A stretch of DNA of 43,067 nucleotides from a virus (taxonomy: Duplodnaviria > Heunggongvirae > Uroviricota > Caudoviricetes), in IMG/VR virus record IMGVR_UViG_2657244961_000008, positions 1 through 43,067 of that record, one strand, 5' to 3'. The position numbers were made by a program, and so were the translations under genes. Shown in pieces: positions 4,007-29,498 of this stretch. The notes under the pieces are model-generated. The model worked only from the letters and a program-made list of their open reading frames with translations, was not told the DNA's origin and made no database searches. Position 1 is the stretch's first letter. Every line of letters starts with the position of its first letter.

Positions 4007-4033
4007 AAAAAAGCCCGCCTGAACCGGCGGGCT
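4007..4033 (-). terminator. intrinsic terminator downstream of lom
   Basis: Hairpin AGCCCGCC-N6-GGCGGGCT (plus 4012..4033) followed on the minus strand by a T-run (plus A-run 4007..4012). Confidence 0.5.
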
Positions 4034-4059: not shown

Positions 4060-4659
4060 TCAGAATTTATAACCGACACCCACGATGAAACCGTCAGTGC
4101 GCCAGTCACCACTGCCGGAGCCTTCATAAGCAATATCAATGGCCACGGATTCGGTCGGGTTAAACTGCACGCCAGCCCCCCACGCCAGAGACGTGTTGCT
4201 GTGGCGACCGTCATCACTTCCGGTCAGCACATCGTGCGTTTTCCCCTTGTTGTCAGTTACGCGGAGATAATCCCCGGAGAAAGTCGACACACGGCTGTAA
4301 GCCATACCCGCCATCGCATACGCGCTGAACCATTCATTCACGCGTACAGACGGCCCCGCCATCACGCTGAACCAGCGGTTACGCACGGAATCTTCATGCC
4401 AGCGGGTATCGCTGTAGTGCGTTTTTTGCTCATCCTCAGCATTGGCATAACTGAAGGACGTAATCAGCCCCAGCGCGTCCGTAAACTCATAACGGTATTT
4501 CACGTTAATCCCGTTCAGATTATCGCTGCCGGGAGCGTTCGTACGGGCATGAAGATACCCCGCGCTCAGTGTGGACTGATGTTCAGACGCCCATGCAGGC
4601 GCACCGGATACGGCCAGACAGATGGCTGCGGACAAAATGGCTGCACAAACTTTACGCAT
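4060..4659 (-). CDS. lom: Lom-like outer membrane protein (Ail/Lom/PagC family)
   Basis: 199 aa with an N-terminal signal peptide and a beta-barrel-like sequence ending in Phe. Sits between J and stf as in lambda. Confidence 0.85.
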   Translation of the reverse strand: MRKVCAAILSAAICLAVSGAPAWASEHQSTLSAGYLHARTNAPGSDNLNGINVKYRYEFTDALGLITSFSYANAEDEQKTHYSDTRWHEDSVRNRWFSVMAGPSVRVNEWFSAYAMAGMAYSRVSTFSGDYLRVTDNKGKTHDVLTGSDDGRHSNTSLAWGAGVQFNPTESVAIDIAYEGSGSGDWRTDGFIVGVGYKF

Positions 4660-4683: not shown

Positions 4684-4707
4684 AAAAAAGGCGCCATTTC
4701 TGGCGCC
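4684..4707 (-). terminator. intrinsic terminator downstream of J
   Basis: Perfect hairpin GGCGCC-ATTTCT-GGCGCC (4690..4707) followed on the minus strand by T6 (plus A-run 4684..4689). Confidence 0.55.
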
Positions 4708-4728
4708 CGTATTGGGGTTATAAAAATT

Positions 4729-7700
4729 TCAACTGATACTGATACCGGATGCGGCTTTTTTCGTTACCGAGACCATTAAATCACTGATCCATGTTCTGGG
4801 ATCTCCACTGCCGCTCGACTGAACTTCAAATGTTAATATTACATCTCCGTCCCCCACTGGCATATCAATGATATTGCTGTACACGACTGTTGTCCTTTTC
4901 GAACCACTAGTGGATTTGTCATAGATTACATTGCCATTTTTGCGCACAATTAATCTGCAGGTATCGTAGATATTAGCGCCATCATTTCTACTAAAATATG
5001 GTGGCGCACCGTACATGATTGGTTGAATTATAATCTGCCTGTCAAAGGCATGATCGTCCTTAATATGAACGGTAAGTGAACCCTGTGGGTATTCTCCGGG
5101 GTGCGGAAATCGATGCCCTGTCGTTTTTACAAAATCACCACGCACCTGGTTAGCATCAAGCATCCCCTTAATAGTACAGCTCTCATTAATCGTGACGTTG
5201 TTGAGCGTCCCGGCGTTCGCATTCACACTGCCACTGATATCCGCATTTTTAGCAGTCAGCTTTCCGTCAGGTGTCAGGGAGAATGCCGGAGGATTGCCAC
5301 CACTGGTAATCGTGGGAGCAATAAGGAACTTGATCAGCGCCTCATTAATAAACGTCTGTCCGCCCTGTGTGACCAGTGCAGGAGTGGTGTTACCATTCGC
5401 CGGGTTAATAAATGCCACCCGGTCTGCAGCCAGCAGCACCTGACTCTGCATGCCGTCGGGGGTGTTCTCAATACCGGCACCGATACCCGCAATATAAAGG
5501 CGTCCGTCCTGCATCTGCTGCAGCTTCACTGCCCACATGCTGTTCAGGTTATTATTTGTATCAACCTGAACCTTCTGTATCTGCTGGATCGCTGCACTCT
5601 GGTCTTCCAGTTTCTTATTGACGGTCTGTGTTATTTCATTGCTGACATCCGTTATGGACGTCCTGATTTCAGTCAGGTCAGGCGCAAGCTGACCGTTATC
5701 AATCTGCGTCCACAGCTCCTGAGCCAGATGGGTTTTCCCTATCTCTCCTTTGAAAAAATCCAGATAGCCGGACGCATCATCACTCGGCTGACCAACAGCC
5801 TCCACAAATGCCGATTTGCCAACGGTGTTCACACTGCGGATATAAAAATAATAATCATGGCCCGGTTTGATATTGATACTGGCAGCTATCCAGTACAGCG
5901 CCGTGCCAAGATAGCGGGCTGTGGTTTCAACCTGCCTGATATCCGCAATCCGCTTTTCCGAGAACCAGAATTCAAACTGTACCGTCGGGTCATAAACCGC
6001 AAGATGCGGCGTGGCGGTTATCTGAAAATAGCCCGGCGTCAGCTCAATCCGCGACGGCGCTGCCGGTGCGGCAATCCGGAACGATACCGACGCCGGATCG
6101 CCCTGCTGCCCCCACGCATTTACTGCCCGGACTGTCAGCCTGTAGTTCCCCAGAGCCAGTTGTGTGAAGCGGTAAGTGGTTTCCGTCGTCCGGGCCGTGC
6201 TGACCAGCCGCTCACGGCCGTCATCCGCTGCCACGGTCAGGCGAAGCAGGAAGCTCACGCCCTTCACCACCTTCGGCGTGTCCCAGCGGGCCAGCACCTG
6301 GTATTCCCCGCTGTCTGCGGTGACTTCTGCGGTCAGATGCTGCACCGCTGGCGGCGTGACACCATTCACCGTGCCGCTCTGGTCGCCGTCAAAGTGCGCC
6401 CCGTTATCCACGATGGCTTCTTTTTCCGGTACATGCTGCACGGCGGTGATGGCATACGTGCCGTCGTCGTTCTCACGGATACTCACGCAGCGGAACAGGC
6501 GCTGGCGCAGCGTCGGCAGCTTCAGCCCCCACACGCTGTATTCTGCAACGCCGTCAGGAACACGGCTCACTTTCACCTTCACGCCGTCGGTGACGGACTG
6601 GACCTCCACGCTGACCGGATTACCCTGACCGTCAACCAGGCTTATCAGCGTGGTACCGGAGGATGGCAGCGTGATTTCACGGTCGAGCGTCAGCGTCCGG
6701 GTCTGGCTGTTCACCGCCAGCACGCGCCCGCCGGTGCTGATACCCGCATAGTCATCATCGCAGATTTCAATGACATCCCCCGGTACATGGCGAAGCCCTT
6801 CCGCACCCACGCTGAAGTCCACGGTCTGCGTTTCCAGCAGTTCCGTTTTAATCAGCCACAGCCCGGCGCGGTGCGCCTGCCCCCGGCTGGTACAGCCAAA
6901 GGCATCCATCTTCGTGACGTTACGACCGTAACGGGCAATGGCCTGCGTATCTTCAACAAGCTCTGTCGCCGTCTCCCAGCCGTTATCCGGGTCAATCCAG
7001 TTCACCTCAACGGCATTATGGCGGTCTTTCAGGGCGCTGAAACTGTAGCGGAACGGCGCGCCATCATCCGGCATCACCACATTACTGCGGTTATAGGCCC
7101 ACACCTTATCCGACGGTCGGTCCTGCACGAACGTCAGCGTCTGCCCGTTCCATACCGGCATACAGCGCATCGCCGAGCAGAAATCACTGAGCACATCCCA
7201 CGCCTTGCGCTGTGTGGTCAGGTACGCATTACAGGTGATGCGCGGCTCCGTGCCGCCAAAGCCGTCCGGCACTGACTGGTCGCAGTACTGGCCGATGACA
7301 TACAGCGCCCATTTGTCCACATCCGCCGCACCAAGACGTTTTCCCATGCCGTAGCGCGGGTGGGTCAGCATATCCCACAGACACCAGGCCATGTTGTTGC
7401 TGTATGCTGGTTTTAACGTTCCGTCCCAGATACCGCTGTATTGCCGCGTCTGCGGGTTATAATTCGACGGCACCTGCAGAATACGCCCGCGCAGATGATA
7501 ATTACGGCTCACCTGCTGGCTGCCGAACTGCTCCGAGTCCACCTGCACGCCGACCAGTGCCGTGTTCGGGTAGCACTGTTTCACATCGATGATTTCGGTG
7601 TATGACGACCAGAGCGTTTTGTTCTGCAGCTGGTCTGTAGTGCTGTCCGGTGTCATCCTGCGCATCCGGATATTGAACGGGCGCGGAGGCAGGTTATCCA

Positions 7701-8265: not shown

Positions 8266-8913
8266 TCAGCGACCAATCACCACAACCTGACCACCGTCCC
8301 CTTCGTCTGCCGTGCTGATCTCCTGAGAAACCACGCGTGACCCCACGCGCATTTCCCCGTACAGAACCGGCAGAACATTGCCCTGGGCAACCATGTTATC
8401 CAGTGAGGAGAAATACGTGTTCTGTTTGCCGTTATCTGTACTGGCTGCCGTGGGCGTCCTGGCTTTCGGTGCCAGCATCTGCGCCACTCCGCCCAGGATC
8501 ATACTGGCCCCTGCCGCATACATGCCCGATACAGCCGCGGCACCCAGCCAACTCACAGGATTCCACCATGCCACCGCAATCAGCGCCGCCCCAAGCACCA
8601 CCTGAAACACACCGCCACTTTTAGCTCCCGCCAGACGCGGCACGATGTGGATCACGGCACCATTTGCCAGCGGCTCATTAAGACGGGCAGATAATTCATT
8701 TTCGCCTGCATCACGCCCGGCAATGCGCACCTGATACCAGCCCTCATTCAGTTTCTGACGAAACGCCGGGAGCTGTGTGGCCAGCGCCCGGATGGCTTCG
8801 GCCCCCGTTTTCACACGAAGGTCGATGCGGCGGCCAAATCGTTGCAAATCCCCGTAAAGGCAGATGCGTGCCATGCCCGGTGACGCCAGAGGGAGTGTGT
8901 GCGTCGCTGCCAT
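8266..8913 (-). CDS. I: tail assembly protein I
   Basis: 215 aa in the lambda I position between K and J, with a hydrophobic C-terminal half. Confidence 0.8.
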   Translation of the reverse strand: MAATHTLPLASPGMARICLYGDLQRFGRRIDLRVKTGAEAIRALATQLPAFRQKLNEGWYQVRIAGRDAGENELSARLNEPLANGAVIHIVPRLAGAKSGGVFQVVLGAALIAVAWWNPVSWLGAAAVSGMYAAGASMILGGVAQMLAPKARTPTAASTDNGKQNTYFSSLDNMVAQGNVLPVLYGEMRVGSRVVSQEISTADEGDGGQVVVIGR

Positions 8914-10599: not shown

Positions 10600-13500
10600 T
10601 GCATAATCCTCCGTCCCGACGTGATGACTGCATAATTGACACAACCCTGCTGTCGATCAGATCCACCAGTCCCCTGGCTGAGCGCGCATCTATCTCGCCA
10701 TTGCTCCCTTGATTCTGAATGCTGATGTGATACACGGGAGAATAAACAAATCCACCGCCACCATTCACATTTCCAATGGCCCTGACCCCAAGAGAGCCGT
10801 CCGCTGCCCGTGTCAGTGGCATGATTGCTTCAGGCCCGGCCTCGCCCATCAACCCGGCACCTTTCGCAAAAGCAAAATACGTCGGTGTATCCACAATAGT
10901 GTTACTGTAAGCACTCAGATTTGCCGATGTATAAACACCACCTTTTGCGTTTGCCACTGCACCGGACAGCCAGTCGCCGACTGTACCAAGCCATCCTCCG
11001 GCACCGGACATGCTTTTGGAAAGTGACTTCAGCCCGTTAACGATGGCAGCGTTCATCAGAATTTTTGAAACTTCCTGGAGAATTGAACTCCCCCAGTTTC
11101 TCCAGTCCACAACATTTCCGGCCAGTGCATCGGAAATATTTGATACCAGCCCGTCCATAGTGGAAACGACAGCATCTGCCGCCTGCGAAGCATAATCAGT
11201 GGCACTGTCTGCCCAGTTCGTCAGCCCCTCCTGGAGTCCGGCATTCCAGTTACTGCGTAAAGCATCAGCCTTTGCATAATAATCCTGCTGATCGCTGAGA
11301 CGCTCTTCCAGATATTTTTTATTCAGTTCTTTCTCCTGTTTCCACAGGGCTTCTTCAATTTCTCCGGCCTGATACTGTCTCAGCAGCTCGTTATTTTTCT
11401 GCTCAAACGCCTGCCGGATACTCCACATTTCCTGGAGTCGTTCACGCATCCGTGAGCCTTCACCATATCCCAGCAACTGCGCGTCGTCAGATGCCCGGGC
11501 GCTGGCATTACTGTCCGCCAGACTGCTTTCATACGCGGCAAGCTGCTCACGAATCTTTTTCTGGTCGATGAGTGCCGCATTCTGTAAAAGCGTTTTTTTC
11601 TGCGCTTCTGACAGGGTTGATAATTCGCCCTGACTGACCTGATATTTCATCTTAGCCAGTTCAGTATTCTGCCCTGCCAGTGCTATTTGTTCTTTTTGCT
11701 GTTTAATCAGCCGTTTATAAATATCTTCTGTTTTTTCCGCTTCGGTCTTTTTATGCGCTTTGGGTTTATTTGCCTGGTTATTTCGCCAGGCATCCAGTGA
11801 GTTATTGATATAATTCTGTCTGGCTGTCTGATACGCCTCTCCCACAAAGCCGAGATCATCCGCAGCATAACCCAGTCGGGCACGCTCACGGGCTTCCCCC
11901 TTCAGGCGGGACAGAGCCAGTTCGCGCTCGCTGTTATTCAGTGCGGTCTGCTGTTTATCATCCAGGGTTGCCTGTGGTAGCCGTAATGGTGCATTCACCA
12001 GCCCCTGTCGCTGCTGAAGTAATTCATTACCAAGCCCGAGAAGACGATTAAACTCGGTATGCTGCCCATTCATGATCAACAGGGACTGATACGCTTTGTT
12101 TTGTTCCGCCGCCTGTTGACGGATCAACGCCACCCGTCGCTCCTCCAGCCCGGCAAGCACATCCTGAATAGATTGCGCTTTGCCCTGCATTTGAGTGAGG
12201 CGAGACTGTTCAACTGCCAGTTGATTTGTTGCTTCTGCAAGCCCTTCTGTGACAGTTTTCACCGACGTCATATGGTTAATCATAAAACCGTTATCGGTTG
12301 TCCAGCCCGGGTTTGCCAGCACATACTGATAGCCAGCAATTTTTTCCTGTAAGGATTTAATCTTACTTTTCTGCTCGTCAATTAACCTGTTTTGCTCATC
12401 AAGTGCCTGCCGCGTCTTTTCTTCATTATCTGACGTTTCAGGAAGCGACATTGCCGACGTTTTCTGGCGAATTTCGTCGATTGTTGCGGCATACTGGCGT
12501 GCAGATTCTCTGGCCTGCTCCTGATTCTGATACATCGTGTACCAGGCCGTCGCCCCCAGCATGACGAGTCCCGGCACACCACCAACCAACCCCAGCGCAC
12601 CACTTAACAGACGACTCCCCACTGACGTGACAGTATTCAGCGTTGTCTGTGCCGCTGTTCTGGCCGCAATATTACGGGTAAGTGACGCCTGGGCAGCTGT
12701 CAGCTTCGCTTCTGCTGCGGCCTGCCTTTCGGTACCGCGAGCAGCAACAACCGCCTGTTGCGCACGATAAACCGCCGCACGCGCCCTGGCGGTTGCTATC
12801 TGTGTCCCCCGAAGTTGCGCTTCAGCAAGAGCCACTTCGTTTCTGGCTGCAGTAATTAATCCGGCAGTTGCAGATCCAGCAGACGACGCCATATTGCCAA
12901 AATATCGGGCTACCCCGACGGCAACCAGTGCGCCAGCTGCAGCAGCCACGGTATCAATATTGTCTGCAACACCATTCAACACCCCGGTGAGTGTCTTTGT
13001 CACTCCGCTTGCCTCGTTCGCACCACCAACCCAGGCCATAAAGGCGTTTTCAACTTTGGTTGCAGAGGATGAAACAGTATCAGGCATTGCTGCATATTCA
13101 TCACGCAACGCCCCAAGCTGACTAATCAGTGCAGGAACAACCTTATCGGCGGTCAGTTTTCCGTTATCCGCCATGGCCTTCAGATCTTTACGGGCAACAC
13201 CCATTCCCGCAGCCAGCGCACGAATAACACGATCGCCGTTCTCATTCACAGAGTTAAATTCTTCACCGCGCAGCACTCCCTGCGCCAGTGCCTGACTGAA
13301 CTGCGTGATCACCGAACTGGCTTCTGCTGTACTGGCACCGGATAATTTCAGGCCCGTGGAGATCGCCTCGGTGACTTTCAGTACCTCCTCAGAACTGTAG
13401 CCATACTCCCGCATGGAAGCTGCAGAGCGGGCAAAAAGGCTGGCGTTATCAGAAAACGCCGTTCCCGTTCTCTGGCTGATTGCCATTAATTCACGTTGTG

Positions 13501-13837
13501 ATACCTGAAAATCATCACTGGACTGTGAAGCCTGCTTCAGACGGGCATTTACTGAATTCCACTCATCGGCGAGAGAAATAAGATGACCGGTAGCAAAAGC
13601 TCCGGCAAATGCCCCCGCCATATTCAGTGCCGAAGATTTAGCTGTATTTATCTGATCCGTCACTTCTGCCAGTGCACGCCGCATTTCACGGGATGCAGCA
13701 GCGGACTGCCGGCCTCCGTTCTGCATGGTACGGTAGTAATCCTGCCCCATACGCGAAGCCCGGGAGATCTCTGACTGGAATGACCGGGAATTTGCCGAGA
13801 TTTTAATAATCAGTTCACGTAATGTCGCCACACTCAT
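10592..13837 (-). CDS. H: tail tape measure protein H
   Basis: 1081 aa, coiled-coil/Ala-Gln-rich, in the canonical position after G-T. Confidence 0.9.
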   Translation of the reverse strand: MSVATLRELIIKISANSRSFQSEISRASRMGQDYYRTMQNGGRQSAAASREMRRALAEVTDQINTAKSSALNMAGAFAGAFATGHLISLADEWNSVNARLKQASQSSDDFQVSQRELMAISQRTGTAFSDNASLFARSAASMREYGYSSEEVLKVTEAISTGLKLSGASTAEASSVITQFSQALAQGVLRGEEFNSVNENGDRVIRALAAGMGVARKDLKAMADNGKLTADKVVPALISQLGALRDEYAAMPDTVSSSATKVENAFMAWVGGANEASGVTKTLTGVLNGVADNIDTVAAAAGALVAVGVARYFGNMASSAGSATAGLITAARNEVALAEAQLRGTQIATARARAAVYRAQQAVVAARGTERQAAAEAKLTAAQASLTRNIAARTAAQTTLNTVTSVGSRLLSGALGLVGGVPGLVMLGATAWYTMYQNQEQARESARQYAATIDEIRQKTSAMSLPETSDNEEKTRQALDEQNRLIDEQKSKIKSLQEKIAGYQYVLANPGWTTDNGFMINHMTSVKTVTEGLAEATNQLAVEQSRLTQMQGKAQSIQDVLAGLEERRVALIRQQAAEQNKAYQSLLIMNGQHTEFNRLLGLGNELLQQRQGLVNAPLRLPQATLDDKQQTALNNSERELALSRLKGEARERARLGYAADDLGFVGEAYQTARQNYINNSLDAWRNNQANKPKAHKKTEAEKTEDIYKRLIKQQKEQIALAGQNTELAKMKYQVSQGELSTLSEAQKKTLLQNAALIDQKKIREQLAAYESSLADSNASARASDDAQLLGYGEGSRMRERLQEMWSIRQAFEQKNNELLRQYQAGEIEEALWKQEKELNKKYLEERLSDQQDYYAKADALRSNWNAGLQEGLTNWADSATDYASQAADAVVSTMDGLVSNISDALAGNVVDWRNWGSSILQEVSKILMNAAIVNGLKSLSKSMSGAGGWLGTVGDWLSGAVANAKGGVYTSANLSAYSNTIVDTPTYFAFAKGAGLMGEAGPEAIMPLTRAADGSLGVRAIGNVNGGGGFVYSPVYHISIQNQGSNGEIDARSARGLVDLIDSRVVSIMQSSRRDGGLCSA

Positions 13838-13845
13838 TCTCCGGA

Positions 13846-13872
13846 CGAAAAAAAACCGCCGAAGCGGTTTTT
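13846..13872. terminator. bidirectional-looking intrinsic terminator between the moron and H
   Basis: Hairpin AACCGC-CGAA-GCGGTT (13854..13869) flanked by A8 (13848..13855) and T5 (13868..13872). Confidence 0.55.
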
Positions 13873-13879
13873 GTATTCT

Positions 13880-14224
13880 TTAAAGAAGTCCGGCCTTACG
13901 CCTTGCTTCCTGAAGATATTCATCATCCGTTTTTTGTGAAACGGAACTATCTGCATTGCAAATTAAATCACTACCGCAATGCTTACATTTAATAGCCTCT
14001 TCTTTGATCAACTCCGCACAGTAAGGGCATTTCTTCATGCCATTGCTTACCATTTGTTGTTCATGTGCCTTCTCATCTCTTTGGATTACTAGCGAATGAA
14101 CCAGAGCAACAATAAAGATCATCGCACCATATACCCACCATCCTAAAAATGAGCGACCTTTGCTTTTCGCAATAATAGCTGGAATTAGTCCCAAAACTAT
14201 TGAAATAAGTAAAAATTCCATCAA
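13880..14224 (-). CDS. moron: small membrane protein with C-terminal zinc ribbon, function unknown
   Basis: 114 aa with two N-terminal hydrophobic helices and a CPYC...CKHC motif. AT-rich by inspection, with its own promoter-like sequence (TTGACT...TTTATT), an AAGGA RBS and a terminator. Confidence 0.6.
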
Positions 14225-14278
14225 TGTTTCCTTACTTTCTCAATAAAATGGGAATAATAATCCAGTCAAGTGAAAAGA

Positions 14279-14590
14279 TCATCGAGCTGCAACAAATAAT
14301 GCCTTCTCAATCTCAGCAAATGGATCTGAGGTGCCTTCTGTCTGCTCCTTCTCCCACTGAAGAAGCGCATCATTCAGTGGCACTTTGACCCCCTGCGCAC
14401 CGTAAACAGCTGAAACTATCTGGGCAGCCCGGATATCAGCCCGCTCGTCACCCAGCGGGCTGAACCTGTCAAATTCTGCCCACATCATGATTTCTGATGC
14501 AGACATTTCCCGGCGTAACTCTGACAATGTGCGCCCCATCCTGAGCGCCAGCATCATCAGAAAACGCATCCCCGGAAGCGCTACTTTTTT
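14279..14590 (-). CDS. T: tail assembly chaperone T segment, expressed as a G-T fusion by -1 frameshift
   Basis: 96-aa ORF in the -1 frame relative to G, directly downstream of the slippery site. The frame arithmetic was checked by hand. Confidence 0.7.
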   Translation of the reverse strand, partial: KKVALPGMRFLMMLALRMGRTLSELRREMSASEIMMWAEFDRFSPLGDERADIRAAQIVSAVYGAQGVKVPLNDALLQWEKEQTEGTSDPFAEIEKALFVAAR

Positions 14591-14967
14591 TTAACCTCAC
14601 CGGCATCACTGATCAGTTCCAGAGACTGCCGAAGAAGCCGCGCATGCACCGGGCCATACACGGCAATCACCTGTTCACGATCATCCTCTGAAAATACAGG
14701 TTGCAGTCCGGTATCACACAGAACATCAATGAACAGTTCAACATCTGCCTCCAGATTTCGGCGGGCGCGCTCCGCAACGGATAACGGTGTCTCATCATCT
14801 TTTGCTTTAACGATCTCCTGCCAGCGCAACCAGGCTTCTGCAGAAGGTTCCCGTAATACAACCGTTGCCCCTTCCCATTCAGGCACATCAACAGTTTTAT
14901 GGCGAAACCCCGACATCGTTGCCAGTGCCAGATTACGGATATTTTTAGTCATCACATCTATCCTCAT
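14581..14967 (-). CDS. G: tail assembly chaperone G
   Basis: 128 aa, acidic, ends GEVKKK. Lies between V and T. Confidence 0.8.
   Translation of the reverse strand: MRIDVMTKNIRNLALATMSGFRHKTVDVPEWEGATVVLREPSAEAWLRWQEIVKAKDDETPLSVAERARRNLEADVELFIDVLCDTGLQPVFSEDDREQVIAVYGPVHARLLRQSLELISDAGEVKKK
14584..14590 (-). promoter_or_regulatory. programmed -1 ribosomal frameshift slippery heptamer A AAA AAG
   Basis: Minus-strand sequence GTT AAA AAA AAG TAG at the end of G. The heptamer is of the dnaX type, and a -1 slip continues into the T frame (K-K-V-A-L-P-G-M-R-F...). Confidence 0.65.
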
Positions 14968-15671
14968 TAACTGACGGTAACAGTGCAGGAAGTGGAGGTC
15001 ACCTTGTTAACCGGGCTTGCTGAATCAGAAATCTCGCAGGTATATGCACCCGCATCACCGGATACTGCGGATGCCTTACTGAACGTTGCCGCCGTCTGTC
15101 CGGAAACAGGAGAACCACCTTTCTTCCAGACATAAGAATAAGGCGGCACACCACCGGCAGCCTCAACCGCCATTTCAAGTTTCGCTCCGGCAGAAACCTG
15201 CAGCGTGCTGTTTAAATCGACCTTCACTTTTAGCGGCTCTGTCGTCAGCACAGGTTTACCTTTCAGACGCAGGGAAAACGTTGCAGCCACAACACCATTG
15301 GTTCCTGCAGACCAGGTATGCTGACGCACCTCTGCCATAAAGGTAAATCCGTTGCCTGACGGAAAAATAACTTTAAAGCCATACGTGGTGTCATTGTCAT
15401 AGGCACTGCGCAACGCGTTCTGGGCAGCATTGAGGTAAAAGTTGCCTGACATGGAAATCTCTGACGCGGCACCAAGGCCGTTAATATTTTCCTGCTCAAC
15501 AGAACACAGCGTGGTGACATCAATATCCTGCTTTTGTCCTGCGGTAAACTGCACCTCTTTAATCGTACAGCTCAGTTCAAGAAAACTGGCAGAACTCAGC
15601 GTTTCTGCCGTTACCGGCGCAGACGAGATCATGACTTTGGTCTGCTGAGAACGTTCAAAATTAGAGGACAT
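14967..15671 (-). CDS. V: major tail protein V with C-terminal Ig-like domain
   Basis: 234 aa. C-terminal segment GGVPPYSYVWKK...AYTCEISD is typical of a Big_2/Ig-like domain. Confidence 0.85.
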   Translation of the reverse strand: MSSNFERSQQTKVMISSAPVTAETLSSASFLELSCTIKEVQFTAGQKQDIDVTTLCSVEQENINGLGAASEISMSGNFYLNAAQNALRSAYDNDTTYGFKVIFPSGNGFTFMAEVRQHTWSAGTNGVVAATFSLRLKGKPVLTTEPLKVKVDLNSTLQVSAGAKLEMAVEAAGGVPPYSYVWKKGGSPVSGQTAATFSKASAVSGDAGAYTCEISDSASPVNKVTSTSCTVTVS

Positions 15672-15685
15672 ACTCGTCTCCTGAA

Positions 15686-15710
15686 AATAAAAAAACCCGC
15701 CAGCGGCGGG
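15686..15710 (-). terminator. hairpin plus T-run between the U-like gene and V
   Basis: Stem CCCGCC/GGCGGG (15696..15710) followed on the minus strand by a T-rich run (plus AAATAAAAAAA, 15686..15695). Confidence 0.4.
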
Positions 15711-15731
15711 TGGGTAAAATCATTAACGATC

Positions 15732-16076
15732 TCAGGCTATTACCTGAAATTCAAGCGTGGCTCTGCTCAGACGGGAATCAGGATCATAACCCTGCGTTTT
15801 AGAAATAACGGAGGGTGCCAGTTGCCTTACCGCATCAAGCGCCTGCTCACGGATATCATCTGCGTCATCAGGTACTGTCGCCCAGACATCGATCTGCACG
15901 GTAATTCTTGATTCAGCCTGACCATCAAGCACATCAGATGCCGTGTCAGACACCACAGAAAACACCAGCCATGGCGGAGATACCGCAGGCTTTCCCTCCG
16001 TCAGCGGGACCACATAAGGATAAACCTGTCCTCCGGCCAGTTGAGACAGCAGTGAATACAGTGTGGTCTCTCTCAT
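15732..16076 (-). CDS. tail terminator protein (U-like)
   Basis: 114 aa immediately upstream of V. Called by position and size only. Confidence 0.55.
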   Translation of the reverse strand: MRETTLYSLLSQLAGGQVYPYVVPLTEGKPAVSPPWLVFSVVSDTASDVLDGQAESRITVQIDVWATVPDDADDIREQALDAVRQLAPSVISKTQGYDPDSRLSRATLEFQVIA

Positions 16077-16522
16077 TTACTTAAGACCTCATCAATAGCC
16101 TGATTCATTCGCTGTATGGCAATCTGTGCTGCCAGTTCCTCTGTCGTATCGAAAGCCGGGCGAATGAACGGATGCGCGGGCATGTTTATCGTTCCCAGCT
16201 CCACAAAGCGCCAGTAAAACGCATTACGGGGATCGCTGGCTTTCATGCTGTTATCACTGTTTCCGGTTCGCAGGTTCCGTCCACGAATGTGGACACCCGA
16301 GATAATTTCCCCCCGACGCTTTGAACGCTGAGTGAGAACAACCACATTTTTCTTCAGTTTCCCGGTTCGCTCCGGCGCACGTTCAACAACTGCATCCCGC
16401 ATAACTTCAGCACCGGCACGGGTGGCATCGCGCAGCACCTTATTGTTTTCTGCCCTGCTGAGCGTCTCCAGATCCCGTGCAATATCCGCCAGACCTGAAA
16501 AATCAAGACTGAAATCCATCAC
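16073..16522 (-). CDS. HK97 gp10-like tail completion/neck protein
   Basis: 149 aa with a 4-nt overlap to the neighbouring gene. Position matches the HK97-type head-tail gene order. Confidence 0.55.
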   Translation of the reverse strand: MMDFSLDFSGLADIARDLETLSRAENNKVLRDATRAGAEVMRDAVVERAPERTGKLKKNVVVLTQRSKRRGEIISGVHIRGRNLRTGNSDNSMKASDPRNAFYWRFVELGTINMPAHPFIRPAFDTTEELAAQIAIQRMNQAIDEVLSK

Positions 16523-16857
16523 ACATTCCCCTTCTGAGAACAGAGTATCTCAAGCCGGGTGGCACGGGCATCCGGTATCGGCGGACCGTCTATACTCAGA
16601 ATCGCGCCTTTGAATGCGCCAGTCAGCACTTTCAGACATGAAGTTGCTGTCACATCTCGCCGGAATCTCATCCAGACCCTCACTGTAGCCTGAGCAGTTT
16701 CTGCGCCTCCGGATATTCTCTCCCTGCCACTGATCCCCTTAACTTCTGCCCATATGGTTGCCCCTTCCGTCATTGTTTCCACAGGGTGCCCTGATGGAGA
16801 CCGAACGGTGGTGGCATTCAGAATAACCACACGATCACGTAATCTTCCTGCCTGCAT
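16519..16857 (-). CDS. head-tail joining (head closure) protein
   Basis: 112 aa. Called by position in the HK97-like connector block. Confidence 0.55.
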   Translation of the reverse strand: MQAGRLRDRVVILNATTVRSPSGHPVETMTEGATIWAEVKGISGRERISGGAETAQATVRVWMRFRRDVTATSCLKVLTGAFKGAILSIDGPPIPDARATRLEILCSQKGNV

Positions 16858-16865
16858 GAATCCTC

Positions 16866-17171
16866 CTATGTCCCGGGATGAAACCGATACATCCGCAGTC
16901 CGGTATAGAAAAAATCAGGCACTGCATCCTGCATTTCCCTGTTCTCGTACCAGTAGCCAACCAGTTGCATAAGACGCAGTTTTATCAGAGGTGTTATTAC
17001 AAGCCCGGTCGTATCCTGCTCAGAAACAGTTTCATCGTAAAGCGTCCGGTTTAAAAACTTTTCAGCCTCTTCCCTGGCGGCAGCCAGATACATCATAAGA
17101 AGAGAATTCTCCTGTTCATTGTCATCATCAATCCGGCACTGAACACGAAGCTCTTCCAGAGTGGGCATCAT
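16866..17171 (-). CDS. gp6-like head-tail connector protein
   Basis: 101 aa. Called by position downstream of the major capsid gene. Confidence 0.55.
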   Translation of the reverse strand: MMPTLEELRVQCRIDDDNEQENSLLMMYLAAAREEAEKFLNRTLYDETVSEQDTTGLVITPLIKLRLMQLVGYWYENREMQDAVPDFFYTGLRMYRFHPGT

Positions 17172-17182
17172 TTGGGCAACCT

Positions 17183-17371
17183 CTATGAATGCTGTTTTTT
17201 AGACTTATCAGCCCCCCGCGCAACAGGTGTTCTCTTTTCAGAGACAATCCCAGCTGCAGTGGCAATTTCGCGTACCCGTTCGGGTAATTCTTTATCTTCA
17301 TACTCACCGGCCCGAATAATCTCAACACGCATACCGTCCGGTGACCATTTCAGATCTTGTTTCAGGATCAT
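17183..17371 (-). CDS. small hypothetical protein
   Basis: 62 aa with an AGGTGA RBS 7 nt upstream. Follows a GC hairpin downstream of the capsid gene. Confidence 0.4.
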   Translation of the reverse strand: MILKQDLKWSPDGMRVEIIRAGEYEDKELPERVREIATAAGIVSEKRTPVARGADKSKKQHS

Positions 17372-17421
17372 GATTCTTTCACCTGTCAGAACAGGGGCGC
17401 ACTTCTGCGCCCCCTGAATGA

Positions 17422-18627
17422 TTACGCCGCTGCAATCTTCAGCAGTTTGATGGCCTGCGAATCGACCAGCATGCCGCCGGTGCGCTTGGTGGTATAAAAA
17501 CCGACAAACGGTTTATTGGTGTACGGGTCACGCAGAATGCGGGTACCGATACGGTCAACGATGGTGTAACCCCGTTTGAAGTTACCAAATGCAATGGCTT
17601 TCGCATCAGCGGCAATATCCGGCATCTGTTCGTTTTCAGCGATACCGTAACCCGCCAGAGAGGACGGCTGCCCCAGCTCCAGCCCCGGACGCCACAGATA
17701 GTTACCCTCTGTGTCTTTCAGCAGACGAATGGCAAACAGGCTGTTGTTGTTCATCATGAACTTCGCGCCGGTGCGGTGTGCCTTACGCAGCGTGTAAATC
17801 AGTTTGATAATGGCATCTGCAGTCACTGCCGTCGCTTCGCCGGATACAATATGCTGAAGTTTGCCGAACGCCCGGATCTTGTCGGTTTCATCAGTGGATT
17901 CATACGCCAGGAACCCTTTCGGCTTCTTGGTACCATCGCCGGTGGTAAAGGCAATTTCTTCCTGTTCGGCAAATTCGGTTGCCAGCTCGCTGTTGATCCA
18001 GGCCTCCACGTTGAAAAAGGCATCATCCAGCATTTTCTGGGTGGCCTGCGGGTTACCGTAGATTTCCCCCATGAAAGGTTCAATCAGTCCCAGTTTTGAG
18101 GTGGCAGTCTGGGAGCGCGCGTCAGTCTCGCCAACCCATCCGGAAGCCGTGCCGCCCAGATTCACCAGTTTTTTGTAGTCGGAACCGCCAACGGTGATCA
18201 CCGTGGCTTCCTGGCGCATCACCACTTCATCTTTCAGCAGGTTGAGAATGTTGCGATCCAGTGCTTCCGGCACGGCATAGCCACCGTCTTCATCGGTGCC
18301 CACCTGCAATGCCTTACGCTCCAGATCGCGCAGACCGTCTTCACGGCCTTTACGCAGGAAGCCCACAAACGCCTCTTTATGCTCGGTGGCCAGTTTATTT
18401 TGCGCACCACCTGCCGGACGTTTCAGCTCAAGCAGCTCTTTTTCAAGGTCGCTTTTGAGATTTTCCAGCTCACTGAGTTTCCCGTTCAGGGTTTCCACCT
18501 GCCCGGCAAGCTTGCCTTTTTCCTGCTCAATCGCATCCACGCGCTTGTCGTTCTTTGCCTTGAAGTCGTCAAACTTCTGCTGCAGCTCCTGCGCGACCTG
18601 TTCGACATCTTTAATATCAACCGCCAT
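17422..18627 (-). CDS. major capsid protein, HK97 fold, with N-terminal coiled-coil delta domain
   Basis: 401 aa. N-terminal 100 aa are coiled-coil. Follows the prohead protease gene. Confidence 0.9.
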   Translation of the reverse strand: MAVDIKDVEQVAQELQQKFDDFKAKNDKRVDAIEQEKGKLAGQVETLNGKLSELENLKSDLEKELLELKRPAGGAQNKLATEHKEAFVGFLRKGREDGLRDLERKALQVGTDEDGGYAVPEALDRNILNLLKDEVVMRQEATVITVGGSDYKKLVNLGGTASGWVGETDARSQTATSKLGLIEPFMGEIYGNPQATQKMLDDAFFNVEAWINSELATEFAEQEEIAFTTGDGTKKPKGFLAYESTDETDKIRAFGKLQHIVSGEATAVTADAIIKLIYTLRKAHRTGAKFMMNNNSLFAIRLLKDTEGNYLWRPGLELGQPSSLAGYGIAENEQMPDIAADAKAIAFGNFKRGYTIVDRIGTRILRDPYTNKPFVGFYTTKRTGGMLVDSQAIKLLKIAAA

Positions 18628-18641
18628 CGTATTTCTCCTGA

Positions 18642-19328
18642 TTAGAAGTTCAGATTTTTCAGTGCATTCAGTGCAGAGCCCACATCCTCAGCGTCGCGCA
18701 GGGACAGTGCGCCATAGCCCCCGGCCATGAATGCTTTGGCCTGGGTACGGGAGAGTCCGACATCACGCAGGACTCTTTCGATTTTTTTCTGTTCGGGGAT
18801 TTCCCCGCGGGCCAGTGCGTTCTTGACGTCGCTGATCCGCGCCTCGTCGTTAGACGGGAACGTCACCAGGCTGACTTCCCAGAGGTCGATTTCTTTCAGC
18901 AGAAAGGCTTCTTTGCTCCTGTCGTATTCCCAGTCTTTCAGGACGTACCCAATAGAAAGGCCGGTTAACGAACCGGCCTTCATGTGTGCATGTGCGCGTT
19001 TTGCGAGGGGATCATCATCAATAAGCAACCGTCCCCTGACGTAAAGCCCGACATCGTCTTCCTTCATTTCGGTGTAAACACCGATGGGTTCATCCATGCG
19101 GTGCTGCCAGAGCAGCGCAGGTAACGCTTTTCTGTCACTCCACGCCCGCAGGGAAGCAGCAAATGCCCCGGACATCACCACATCATCGTGGCTGTCCTTT
19201 ACACCAAAGACGGAGCCATACCCTTCAAACTCACCGGAGTCACTGACAGATTTCAGACTCAGCGGTACATCAAGACGTTGTTTCGTCTGCATTGGCGTTA
19301 TCCTTCTGCTTACCGGCTTTACTGCCAT
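18642..19328 (-). CDS. prohead protease (HK97 family)
   Basis: 228 aa between portal and capsid. The start overlaps the portal 3' end, so the true start may be an internal Met. Confidence 0.8.
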   Translation of the reverse strand: MAVKPVSRRITPMQTKQRLDVPLSLKSVSDSGEFEGYGSVFGVKDSHDDVVMSGAFAASLRAWSDRKALPALLWQHRMDEPIGVYTEMKEDDVGLYVRGRLLIDDDPLAKRAHAHMKAGSLTGLSIGYVLKDWEYDRSKEAFLLKEIDLWEVSLVTFPSNDEARISDVKNALARGEIPEQKKIERVLRDVGLSRTQAKAFMAGGYGALSLRDAEDVGSALNALKNLNF

Positions 19329-28594: not shown

Positions 28595-28631
28595 CTGTAA
28601 AAATCCTTCTAACGTCAGGCATAAAACGCCC

Positions 28632-28676: not shown

Positions 28677-29498
28677 CTATCGCGTTACCCTCTTTAACTG
28701 CCGCTCCGCCCATGCCTCCTCAATGTCAAACCGAACCACCAGCGTATCGTAAAAACGCTTCACTGATTTTTTCCACGTATCAAGAGTAATAGCGCTCGTC
28801 ACTTTGCATATGGCATTAAACGCCTCTGTTGACGGCAATCTTTCATAGCCACGACCACCACAACGCTGGCAGTCTCTGATAACAGGCATACCACGTTTTA
28901 CCGACTCCTCACGATGAATGGCGACCCCACGCCCACGGCAATCCTTACAGGCGGTGGAGACCTCCCCCTTCCCTTTACATTCAGGACAGGAGACTTTCAC
29001 CACCTCCCGGACTCTTTTCCATTCTTCCCAGTAAGACGGATACACACCTTTCGTACACTTTGCCCATACCGGCGGCTTACCATCCGGATACTGGACCTTG
29101 TTTGTAAAAACTACGCTTTCAATAAATTTTTCCCCATAGCAACAAGGGCACTGCTTTTTACTCGCTGCGCTGCGGGCATAATCCTCAAAAGCATACGAAG
29201 CCATAATGCGCATCACTAACGGTTTTATTTCTGCCGGAAGTTTTCTCAACGCCGCCACACGATCGCACCGACTGAGTGCATAATCTGCCAGTAATTCTGT
29301 TGCCCGCGCCCTGTCATTCATACTGATGCCCATTTTCCCCAGGAACGCAGAAAACCCCATCTCAGCCCGATTCTGTGTCATGCCCTGCGCGGCCATCACA
29401 TCAGTGATACTCAGCGCATCTTTTGACGTTGAGGCCGATGCATCGGTCAGGCCAGGGGATTTTGGGGAGTAGTATTTCGGTAAATCTTCCAGTTTCAT
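28677..29498 (-). CDS. Q: late-gene antitermination protein Q
   Basis: 273 aa with several CxxC zinc-binding motifs. Follows RusA and is followed by the pR'/tR' unit. Confidence 0.8.
   Translation of the reverse strand: MKLEDLPKYYSPKSPGLTDASASTSKDALSITDVMAAQGMTQNRAEMGFSAFLGKMGISMNDRARATELLADYALSRCDRVAALRKLPAEIKPLVMRIMASYAFEDYARSAASKKQCPCCYGEKFIESVVFTNKVQYPDGKPPVWAKCTKGVYPSYWEEWKRVREVVKVSCPECKGKGEVSTACKDCRGRGVAIHREESVKRGMPVIRDCQRCGGRGYERLPSTEAFNAICKVTSAITLDTWKKSVKRFYDTLVVRFDIEEAWAERQLKRVTR

Follow-up and report, generated by a model that had tools for sequence, protein, structure and literature searches.

What are hairpins doing inside the late operon of a tailed phage, a few nucleotides (nt) past the major capsid gene and again directly ahead of the gene for the major tail protein? 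The question is raised by IMG/VR virus record IMGVR_UViG_2657244961_000008, whose positions 1 to 43,067 we refer to as the window; it is a lambdoid Escherichia coli prophage with its late genes on the minus strand. A first-pass annotation of this sequence had pointed to a GC hairpin past the capsid gene (hairpin 1, or post-capsid hairpin) and to a hairpin plus T-run between a U-like gene and gene V (hairpin 2, or pre-V hairpin), and had proposed that such structures set differential mRNA stability or partial termination around highly expressed structural genes. Both elements are present, the first at exactly the coordinates that had been given for it, behind a gene that does encode a capsid protein of family PF05065, and the second at 15684-15711, between two genes whose labels (PF11367, 'tail terminator', and 'major tail protein') also proved right. 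Our analysis indicates that the two are probably sense-strand RNA elements of a Q-dependent late operon, hairpin 2 acting as a terminator that is read through with the help of Q and hairpin 1 mainly as a barrier to mRNA decay.

Hairpin 2 has the make-up of a canonical intrinsic (Rho-independent) terminator. Its stem of 7 base pairs (bp), 6 of them G-C, with a loop of 3 nt, agrees with the G+C stem-loop of 5-14 bp and short loop that characterizes these signals, and the adjoining tract U7AU4 (UUUUUUUAUUUU; tail score 5.2) agrees with the expected length of about 7-9 nt. The predicted folding energy is −12.6 kcal/mol (z = −2.7). The element occurs in a single copy and ranks first in a terminator scan of the window, where 6 sites of this kind satisfied strict criteria, as compared to 0.43±0.67 in Markov simulations, and 5 of the 6 are on the minus strand. 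It is located between the tail-terminator (U-like) gene and V, with 23 nt between its end and the V start codon, and neither the scan nor direct reading of the sequence found a promoter-like site between it and the ribosome binding site (RBS) of V.

This arrangement is conserved well beyond the nearest phages. Hairpin 2 is invariant in 21 close relatives, and a canonical terminator with a differing stem stands at the same place in 13 of 15 diverged genomic loci whose V homologue is 30-69% identical. Two more scans, which took HK97 gp12 and a Proteus V homologue as queries, covered 160 loci with 73 distinct upstream regions in IMG/VR: a hairpin with a T-tail ends 19-26 nt upstream of the V ATG in 68 of the 73, and the data suggest that most of the other five also have a pre-V terminator, with a mismatch in the stem. 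The order of hairpin, U-tract, GGAG and ATG is kept in the relatives, and at least six distinct stem cores can be recognized. As a MAFFT alignment left several of the sequences out of structural register, base pairs were counted in a loop-anchored register instead; 96% of the cells were paired, with double-sided changes in 6 of 7 pairs as compared to at most 1 in shifted controls, although the value of this count as support is reduced by the derivation of the register from the hairpins themselves, which biases it to pairing. Tetraloops of the UNCG type account for 17 of 26, closed by a C-G pair in 15 of those 17, and this enrichment points to selection on the RNA. Selection acts on the pre-V element as RNA and has preserved its hairpin together with its U-tract, the combination that marks a terminator. 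In two of the IMG/VR relatives (L006 and L011) the pre-V hairpin is tandemly duplicated by an insert of about 27-45 nt; one of the two sequences contains N, and an assembly artefact is possible.

The finding belongs to a known class, whose members are already annotated as 'putative terminators' in phage HK97. The RefSeq entry NC_002167 places such features at 5192-5213 after gp5, at 6692-6719 between gp11 and gp12, after gp12, and at 8398-8422 after the gp15 moron and before the tape-measure gene; the first two are at operon positions identical to those of the post-capsid and pre-V hairpins of the window, and the neighbouring tail-module genes are 51-79% identical. The HK97 element ahead of gp12 (ACCCGCC-AGAU-GGCGGGU, then a tail rich in U, AGGAG and ATG) is homologous in sequence to hairpin 2; with the slot, the flanks and the sequence in agreement, hairpin 2 is clearly the orthologue of the 'putative terminator' at 6692-6719. 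The post-capsid hairpins of the two phages, in contrast, share their position but not their sequence: that of HK97, directly past the stop codon, reads GGGCGGG-GAAA-CCCGCCC and is followed by a short U-run (UUUU), whereas hairpin 1 is unrelated to it and has no U-run. HK97 also differs in having an extra hairpin after gp12, which is absent in the window.

Hairpin 1, which reads GGGGCGCACTTCTGCGCCCC on the plus strand and occurs only once in the window, has a G+C stem of 8-9 bp with a GAAG loop and can be extended through C-G and A-U pairs to 17391..17417. It begins 8 nt past the capsid TAA (17424..17422), and 22 nt separate its end from the next ATG (17371). The predicted energy of −18.8 kcal/mol (28 nt; z = −4.72) was equalled by none of 200 shuffled sequences, the hairpin falls within the six most stable 32-nt windows on the entire 43-kb minus strand, and it is retained when 150 nt are folded together. 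Weak predicted folding of the two regions had been named in the first-pass annotation as the outcome that would count against its proposal, and neither energy is weak. No U-tract follows hairpin 1 on its 3' side: the tail is CUGUUCUGAC, with a tail score of 2.07 as compared to 5.2 for hairpin 2, and the terminator scan of the window did not report the element. Hairpin 1 thus has the G+C stem-loop of an intrinsic terminator but not the adjoining U-tract; it does correspond to the type of decay barrier described for the puf operon and for repetitive extragenic palindromic (REP) elements, in being a stable, structurally conserved hairpin 3' of the more abundant cistron.

Hairpin 1 is kept in 80 relatives from IMG/VR whose capsids are 99-100% identical, with variation in the loop and in the loop-closing pair (A-U, G-C, U-G). 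A second, diverged set consisted of 58 genomic loci with capsids 41-99% identical, from Shigella, Klebsiella, Serratia, Morganella, Proteus, Xenorhabdus, Gilliamella and alphaproteobacteria. In most of these loci the capsid stop codon is followed, after a few nt, by a G+C hairpin whose sequence is unrelated, and a 30-nt folding window in the top 0.3% was found at −5 to +45 nt of the stop in 47% of them, as compared to 3.6% at random positions. Post-capsid hairpins unrelated in sequence are also present in phiP27, Klebsiella phage Kp4882-1, lambda (between E and FI), HK97 and SPP1. Among 39 strong post-capsid hairpins the T-tail that follows is strong in 6 and weak in 26, and the 4-nt loops are UUCG or GNRA in 10 of 18. 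Because strong T-tails are rare and stable tetraloops common, the conserved post-capsid feature is a stable RNA hairpin rather than a full terminator. Two structures can be seen past the capsid stop codon of phiP27 (L003; 1430-1475, minus strand), the first a weak hairpin that overlaps the stop codon and is followed by T8, the second an 8-bp G+C hairpin (GUGCCCGC...GCGGGCAC) immediately ahead of the next Shine-Dalgarno sequence.

Likenesses to better known systems fall along the same lines. The E-FI hairpin of lambda (AUGGCCC-UUCG-GGGCCAU) is also rich in G+C, carries a stable tetraloop, stands a few nt past the capsid stop codon of a Q-antiterminated operon and lacks a good U-tract, but its sequence and the capsid family are unrelated to those of the window. 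The Rhodobacter puf operon, the REP sequences of malEFG and the T-phi terminator of T7, after capsid gene 10, all place a stable stem-loop 3' of the more expressed cistron and are cited as decay barriers or as inefficient terminators by which relative expression is set (PMC7509114, PMC9163698); none of these is related in sequence to the window hairpins, which are single-copy, unlike REP. In Bacillus phage SPP1 a predicted Rho-independent terminator lies directly past major capsid gene 13, and stem-loops delimit the late gene clusters (PMC6316719). SPP1 differs in having a Gram-positive host and in that its tail-associated terminator comes after, not before, the major tail gene. To our knowledge, Q-type antitermination has not been described for SPP1.

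The account that we consider probable starts from the expectation that in lambdoid phages Q suppresses intrinsic terminators. As there is no promoter between hairpin 2 and V, V and all the downstream tail genes need read-through, for which Q-modified RNA polymerase would be the likeliest agent; the late operon would be transcribed from a Q-dependent late promoter, and Q antitermination is known to turn on lambdoid late operons (PMC2629481). Unmodified polymerase, arriving through stray transcription in the lysogen or from internal starts, would stop at hairpin 2, so that the tail genes may be insulated at the boundary between head and tail. Transcripts that end at hairpin 2 would carry a protective 3' hairpin, by a principle documented in other systems (PMC7509114, PMC8835761), and the U-tract, lying against the V Shine-Dalgarno sequence, might perhaps aid V translation. 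At hairpin 1 termination is likely to be inefficient. The absence of a U-tract favours a post-transcriptional or a weak-termination role: exonucleases are stopped by hairpins at 3' ends, and processing divides polycistronic transcripts into segments of unequal stability (PMC7509114), so that a block to 3'-to-5' exonucleases at hairpin 1 could let the terminase-portal-protease-capsid segment of the mRNA outlast the low-copy connector genes downstream; alternatively hairpin 1 may be a weak terminator. In evolutionary terms both elements are clearly functional. Our literature search, which did not extend to the original HK97 genome paper, found no study in which these hairpins of HK97-like or lambdoid late operons had been addressed directly by experiment, and no transcript data for this phage group.

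Several observations weigh against this account. Covariation of hairpin 1 among the close relatives, whose alignment is shallow, is weak and not significant (one pair changed on both sides; 22 of 500 shuffles matched the observed score), so that hairpin 1 draws its support from the positional conservation of non-homologous hairpins. No terminator is present between U and V in lambda, where the gap is 8 nt, nor ahead of V in two Xenorhabdus loci among the 15 diverged ones, so that the tail genes can be expressed without it. In the classical lambda work of Sampson et al. in 1988, late-gene stoichiometry reportedly came mainly from translation initiation and not from mRNA level. Finally, Q is separated from the lysis genes by an insertion sequence (IS) element, and the prophage may as a result not be fully functional.

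Partial termination in its simplest form, with both hairpins as leaky terminators that lower the amount of transcript stepwise to fit virion stoichiometry, independently of Q, would suit the demand for capsid protein, which is far above that for the connector proteins encoded after hairpin 1. Some relatives (L097, L104, L121, L127, L130) have a full U-tract behind the capsid hairpin, and weak terminators are so used in T7-like and N4-like phages, inefficient terminators serving to balance phage gene expression (PMC9163698). Hairpin 1 of the window, however, lacks the U-tract. Hairpin 2 comes ahead of V, whose product is needed in larger amounts than any other tail protein, and a drop there runs counter to demand; the phage also has Q, the expected suppressor of such terminators. 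Because the pre-V terminator is upstream of a highly expressed gene with no promoter in between and Q is encoded, attenuation as a means of tuning stoichiometry is insufficient, and we regard it as an unlikely explanation, if not a negligible one. The general idea put forward in the first-pass annotation agrees with the observation that both elements are selected as RNA structures, with the qualification that the two are not equivalent: only the pre-V element is a canonical terminator, and the post-capsid U-tract is absent here and in about two thirds of the relatives.

The constant distance between the pre-V element and its gene can also be read in other ways. One, which we hold to be rather doubtful, is that the element is a dual-purpose 'terminator-RBS fusion' of the HK97-type tail module, at once an insulator between head and tail, through which the tail genes would depend strictly on antiterminated transcription, and the stabilising 5' end and translational enhancer of the major-tail mRNA, in which case the fixed spacing to V would reflect joint selection. 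Quite unlikely, in our opinion, is the proposal that the hairpin and the U-tract mainly serve V expression, endonucleolytic cleavage in the A/U-rich spacer upstream leaving the hairpin as a protective 5' stem-loop of the V-G-T mRNA and the U-tract acting as a translational enhancer of the ribosomal-protein-S1 type. It draws on the spacing of 19-26 nt and the position of the U-tract against GGAG in nearly all the relatives, on the high copy number of V as a tail protein, and on the known stabilisation of mRNA by 5' stem-loops (PMC7509114). A G+C hairpin with 7 or more U is nevertheless the signature of a terminator and is needed for neither of the proposed roles, the upstream processing site is hypothetical, and lambda and the two relatives without a pre-V element express their V homologues all the same.

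The features on which these arguments turn are collected in Table 1.

Table 1. Hairpins, terminators and genes of the late operon, in window coordinates.
Feature	Position	Strand	Basis and remarks
Hairpin 2, canonical intrinsic terminator, ACCCGCC-GCU-GGCGGGU (15711..15695) + U7AU4 (15695..15684)	15684..15711	− (sense strand)	Sequence, folding, scan
Shine-Dalgarno sequence of V, AGGAG, abutting the U-tract of hairpin 2	15678..15682	−	Sequence; V ATG at 15671
Hairpin 1, post-capsid RNA stem-loop, GGGGCGCA-GAAG-UGCGCCCC	17394..17413	− (sense strand)	Sequence and folding
Major capsid protein gene, HK97 fold	17422..18627	−	PF05065, E 4.8e-79
62-amino-acid (aa) gene, unknown function, next after hairpin 1	17183..17371	−	phrog_1020
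Tail terminator / tail completion gene ('U-like', HK97 gp11 homologue)	15732..16076	−	PF11367; PHROG 'tail terminator'; 51% identity to HK97 gp11
Major tail protein gene V, C-terminal Ig domain	14967..15671	−	phrog_158, PHROG 'major tail protein', E 3.6e-109; 72% identity to HK97 gp12
Sense-strand terminator, AAAAACCGC-UUCG-GCGGUUUUUUUU	13851..13872	−	Between moron open reading frame (ORF) and tape-measure gene; same slot as HK97 8398-8422
Late antiterminator Q gene	28677..29498	−	PF03589 'Antitermination protein Q', E 1.1e-52
Candidate tR'-type terminator directly downstream of Q	28577..28596	−	Assigned by position only

The late genes run from the Q antiterminator through the lysis genes, an HNH endonuclease and the small and large terminase subunits to portal, protease and capsid; these are followed by the 62-aa gene, which has homologues downstream of the capsid gene in many relatives, a gp6-type connector, a head completion protein and an HK97-gp10-like protein, and then by the tail terminator, V, the G/T chaperones and the tape measure. 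The nearest sequenced phage is Escherichia phage phi467, with 98.7% identity across 14900-18700. The late operon joins a head module of SfIV/ST64B type to a tail module of HK97 type. The capsid module, hairpin 1 and the initial third of the 62-aa gene are 91-97% identical to the phages SfIV, SfI, SfII and ST64B, and the capsid is only 26% identical to that of HK97; siphoviruses such as phage Evi share the tail module (14900 to 16868), and the tail-side genes match HK97 at 79% for the gp10-like protein, 63% for the head completion protein, 64% for G and 61% for T, besides the values for V and the tail terminator in Table 1. The mosaic joints can be placed at about 16868 and at about 17295-17305, the latter inside the 62-aa ORF.

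Since the phage is mosaic near the hairpins and other terminators of the operon belong to morons (lom; ORF 13880-14221), one may ask whether the palindromes act as DNA, as recombination hot spots at module joints, protein binding sites or remnants of lost morons. This is very improbable: both breakpoints are away from the hairpins, which is also why an origin of the hairpins at mosaic joints was rejected; the stems diverge while their pairing persists; the loops are rich in the RNA-stabilising UNCG and GNRA types, which with the preserved pairing speaks for selection on the RNA structure and not on a DNA motif; and neither hairpin has an ORF or a low-GC insert beside it. A REP-like repeat was rejected as well, each hairpin being found only once in a window search that allowed up to 3 mismatches, as was an antisense terminator, there being no T-run on the plus strand at either element.

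A further reading, in which the pre-V terminator would close a small regulatory RNA (sRNA) made from the 3' part of the tail-terminator gene, is likewise very improbable: no promoter-like site lies upstream on the minus strand, and the match to isrK (RF01394, an Hfq-binding sRNA) that suggests it, at 15690-15749 on the minus strand and overlapping hairpin 2, is weak (19.6 bits, E 0.49), far under the gathering score of 50 and probably due to the terminator alone. Rfam identities were in fact rejected throughout the region 13500-18000, where a permissive search returned only sub-threshold matches, rsmX with 24.7 bits being the other.

Other structured elements are found elsewhere in the window. 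At 13851-14290 on the minus strand, a moron of low GC content (0.35-0.41) separates tail gene T from the tape-measure gene and so fills the slot that the gp15 moron has in HK97. A promoter-like hexamer (TTGACT) near 14270 is followed in it by a 113-aa ORF at 13880-14221 and, at its end, by the terminator at 13872..13851. The ORF belongs to phrog_8436; its product has a hydrophobic segment at the N terminus and a zinc-ribbon motif (CxxC...CxxC). The segment 4012-4708 of the minus strand holds the gene for the Lom outer-membrane protein (4060-4659; phrog_108) flanked by two strong sense-strand terminators, at 4708..4689 and 4033..4012; with the J-like gene on one side of the segment and the tail fibre gene on the other, this is the classic arrangement of a moron. 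The two most stable local hairpins of the minus strand are at 28193-28224 (−24.9 kcal/mol), in the intergenic region between a phrog_331 ORF and a DNA methylase gene and without a T-run, and at 14434-14465 (−23.1 kcal/mol), within the coding sequence of tail gene T. The IS element mentioned above encodes a DDE transposase (PF01609, 402 aa) at 25421-26629 on the minus strand; it sits inside the late transcription unit, between the Q/DNA methylase region and the holin gene, and its insertion may alter late-gene expression of the present prophage copy.

For two elements that carry no more than the label 'putative terminators' in HK97, the data set assembled here adds the comparative side, a conserved position combined with stems that vary. 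It brings into focus the functional question of what keeps so strong a terminator in place in tail modules of HK97 type, only 20 nt ahead of the tail gene with the highest expression. Hairpins at the boundaries of the capsid and major tail genes are confirmed as a selected and widespread feature of siphovirus late operons, and in prophage predictions sites of this kind are not to be taken for operon ends.

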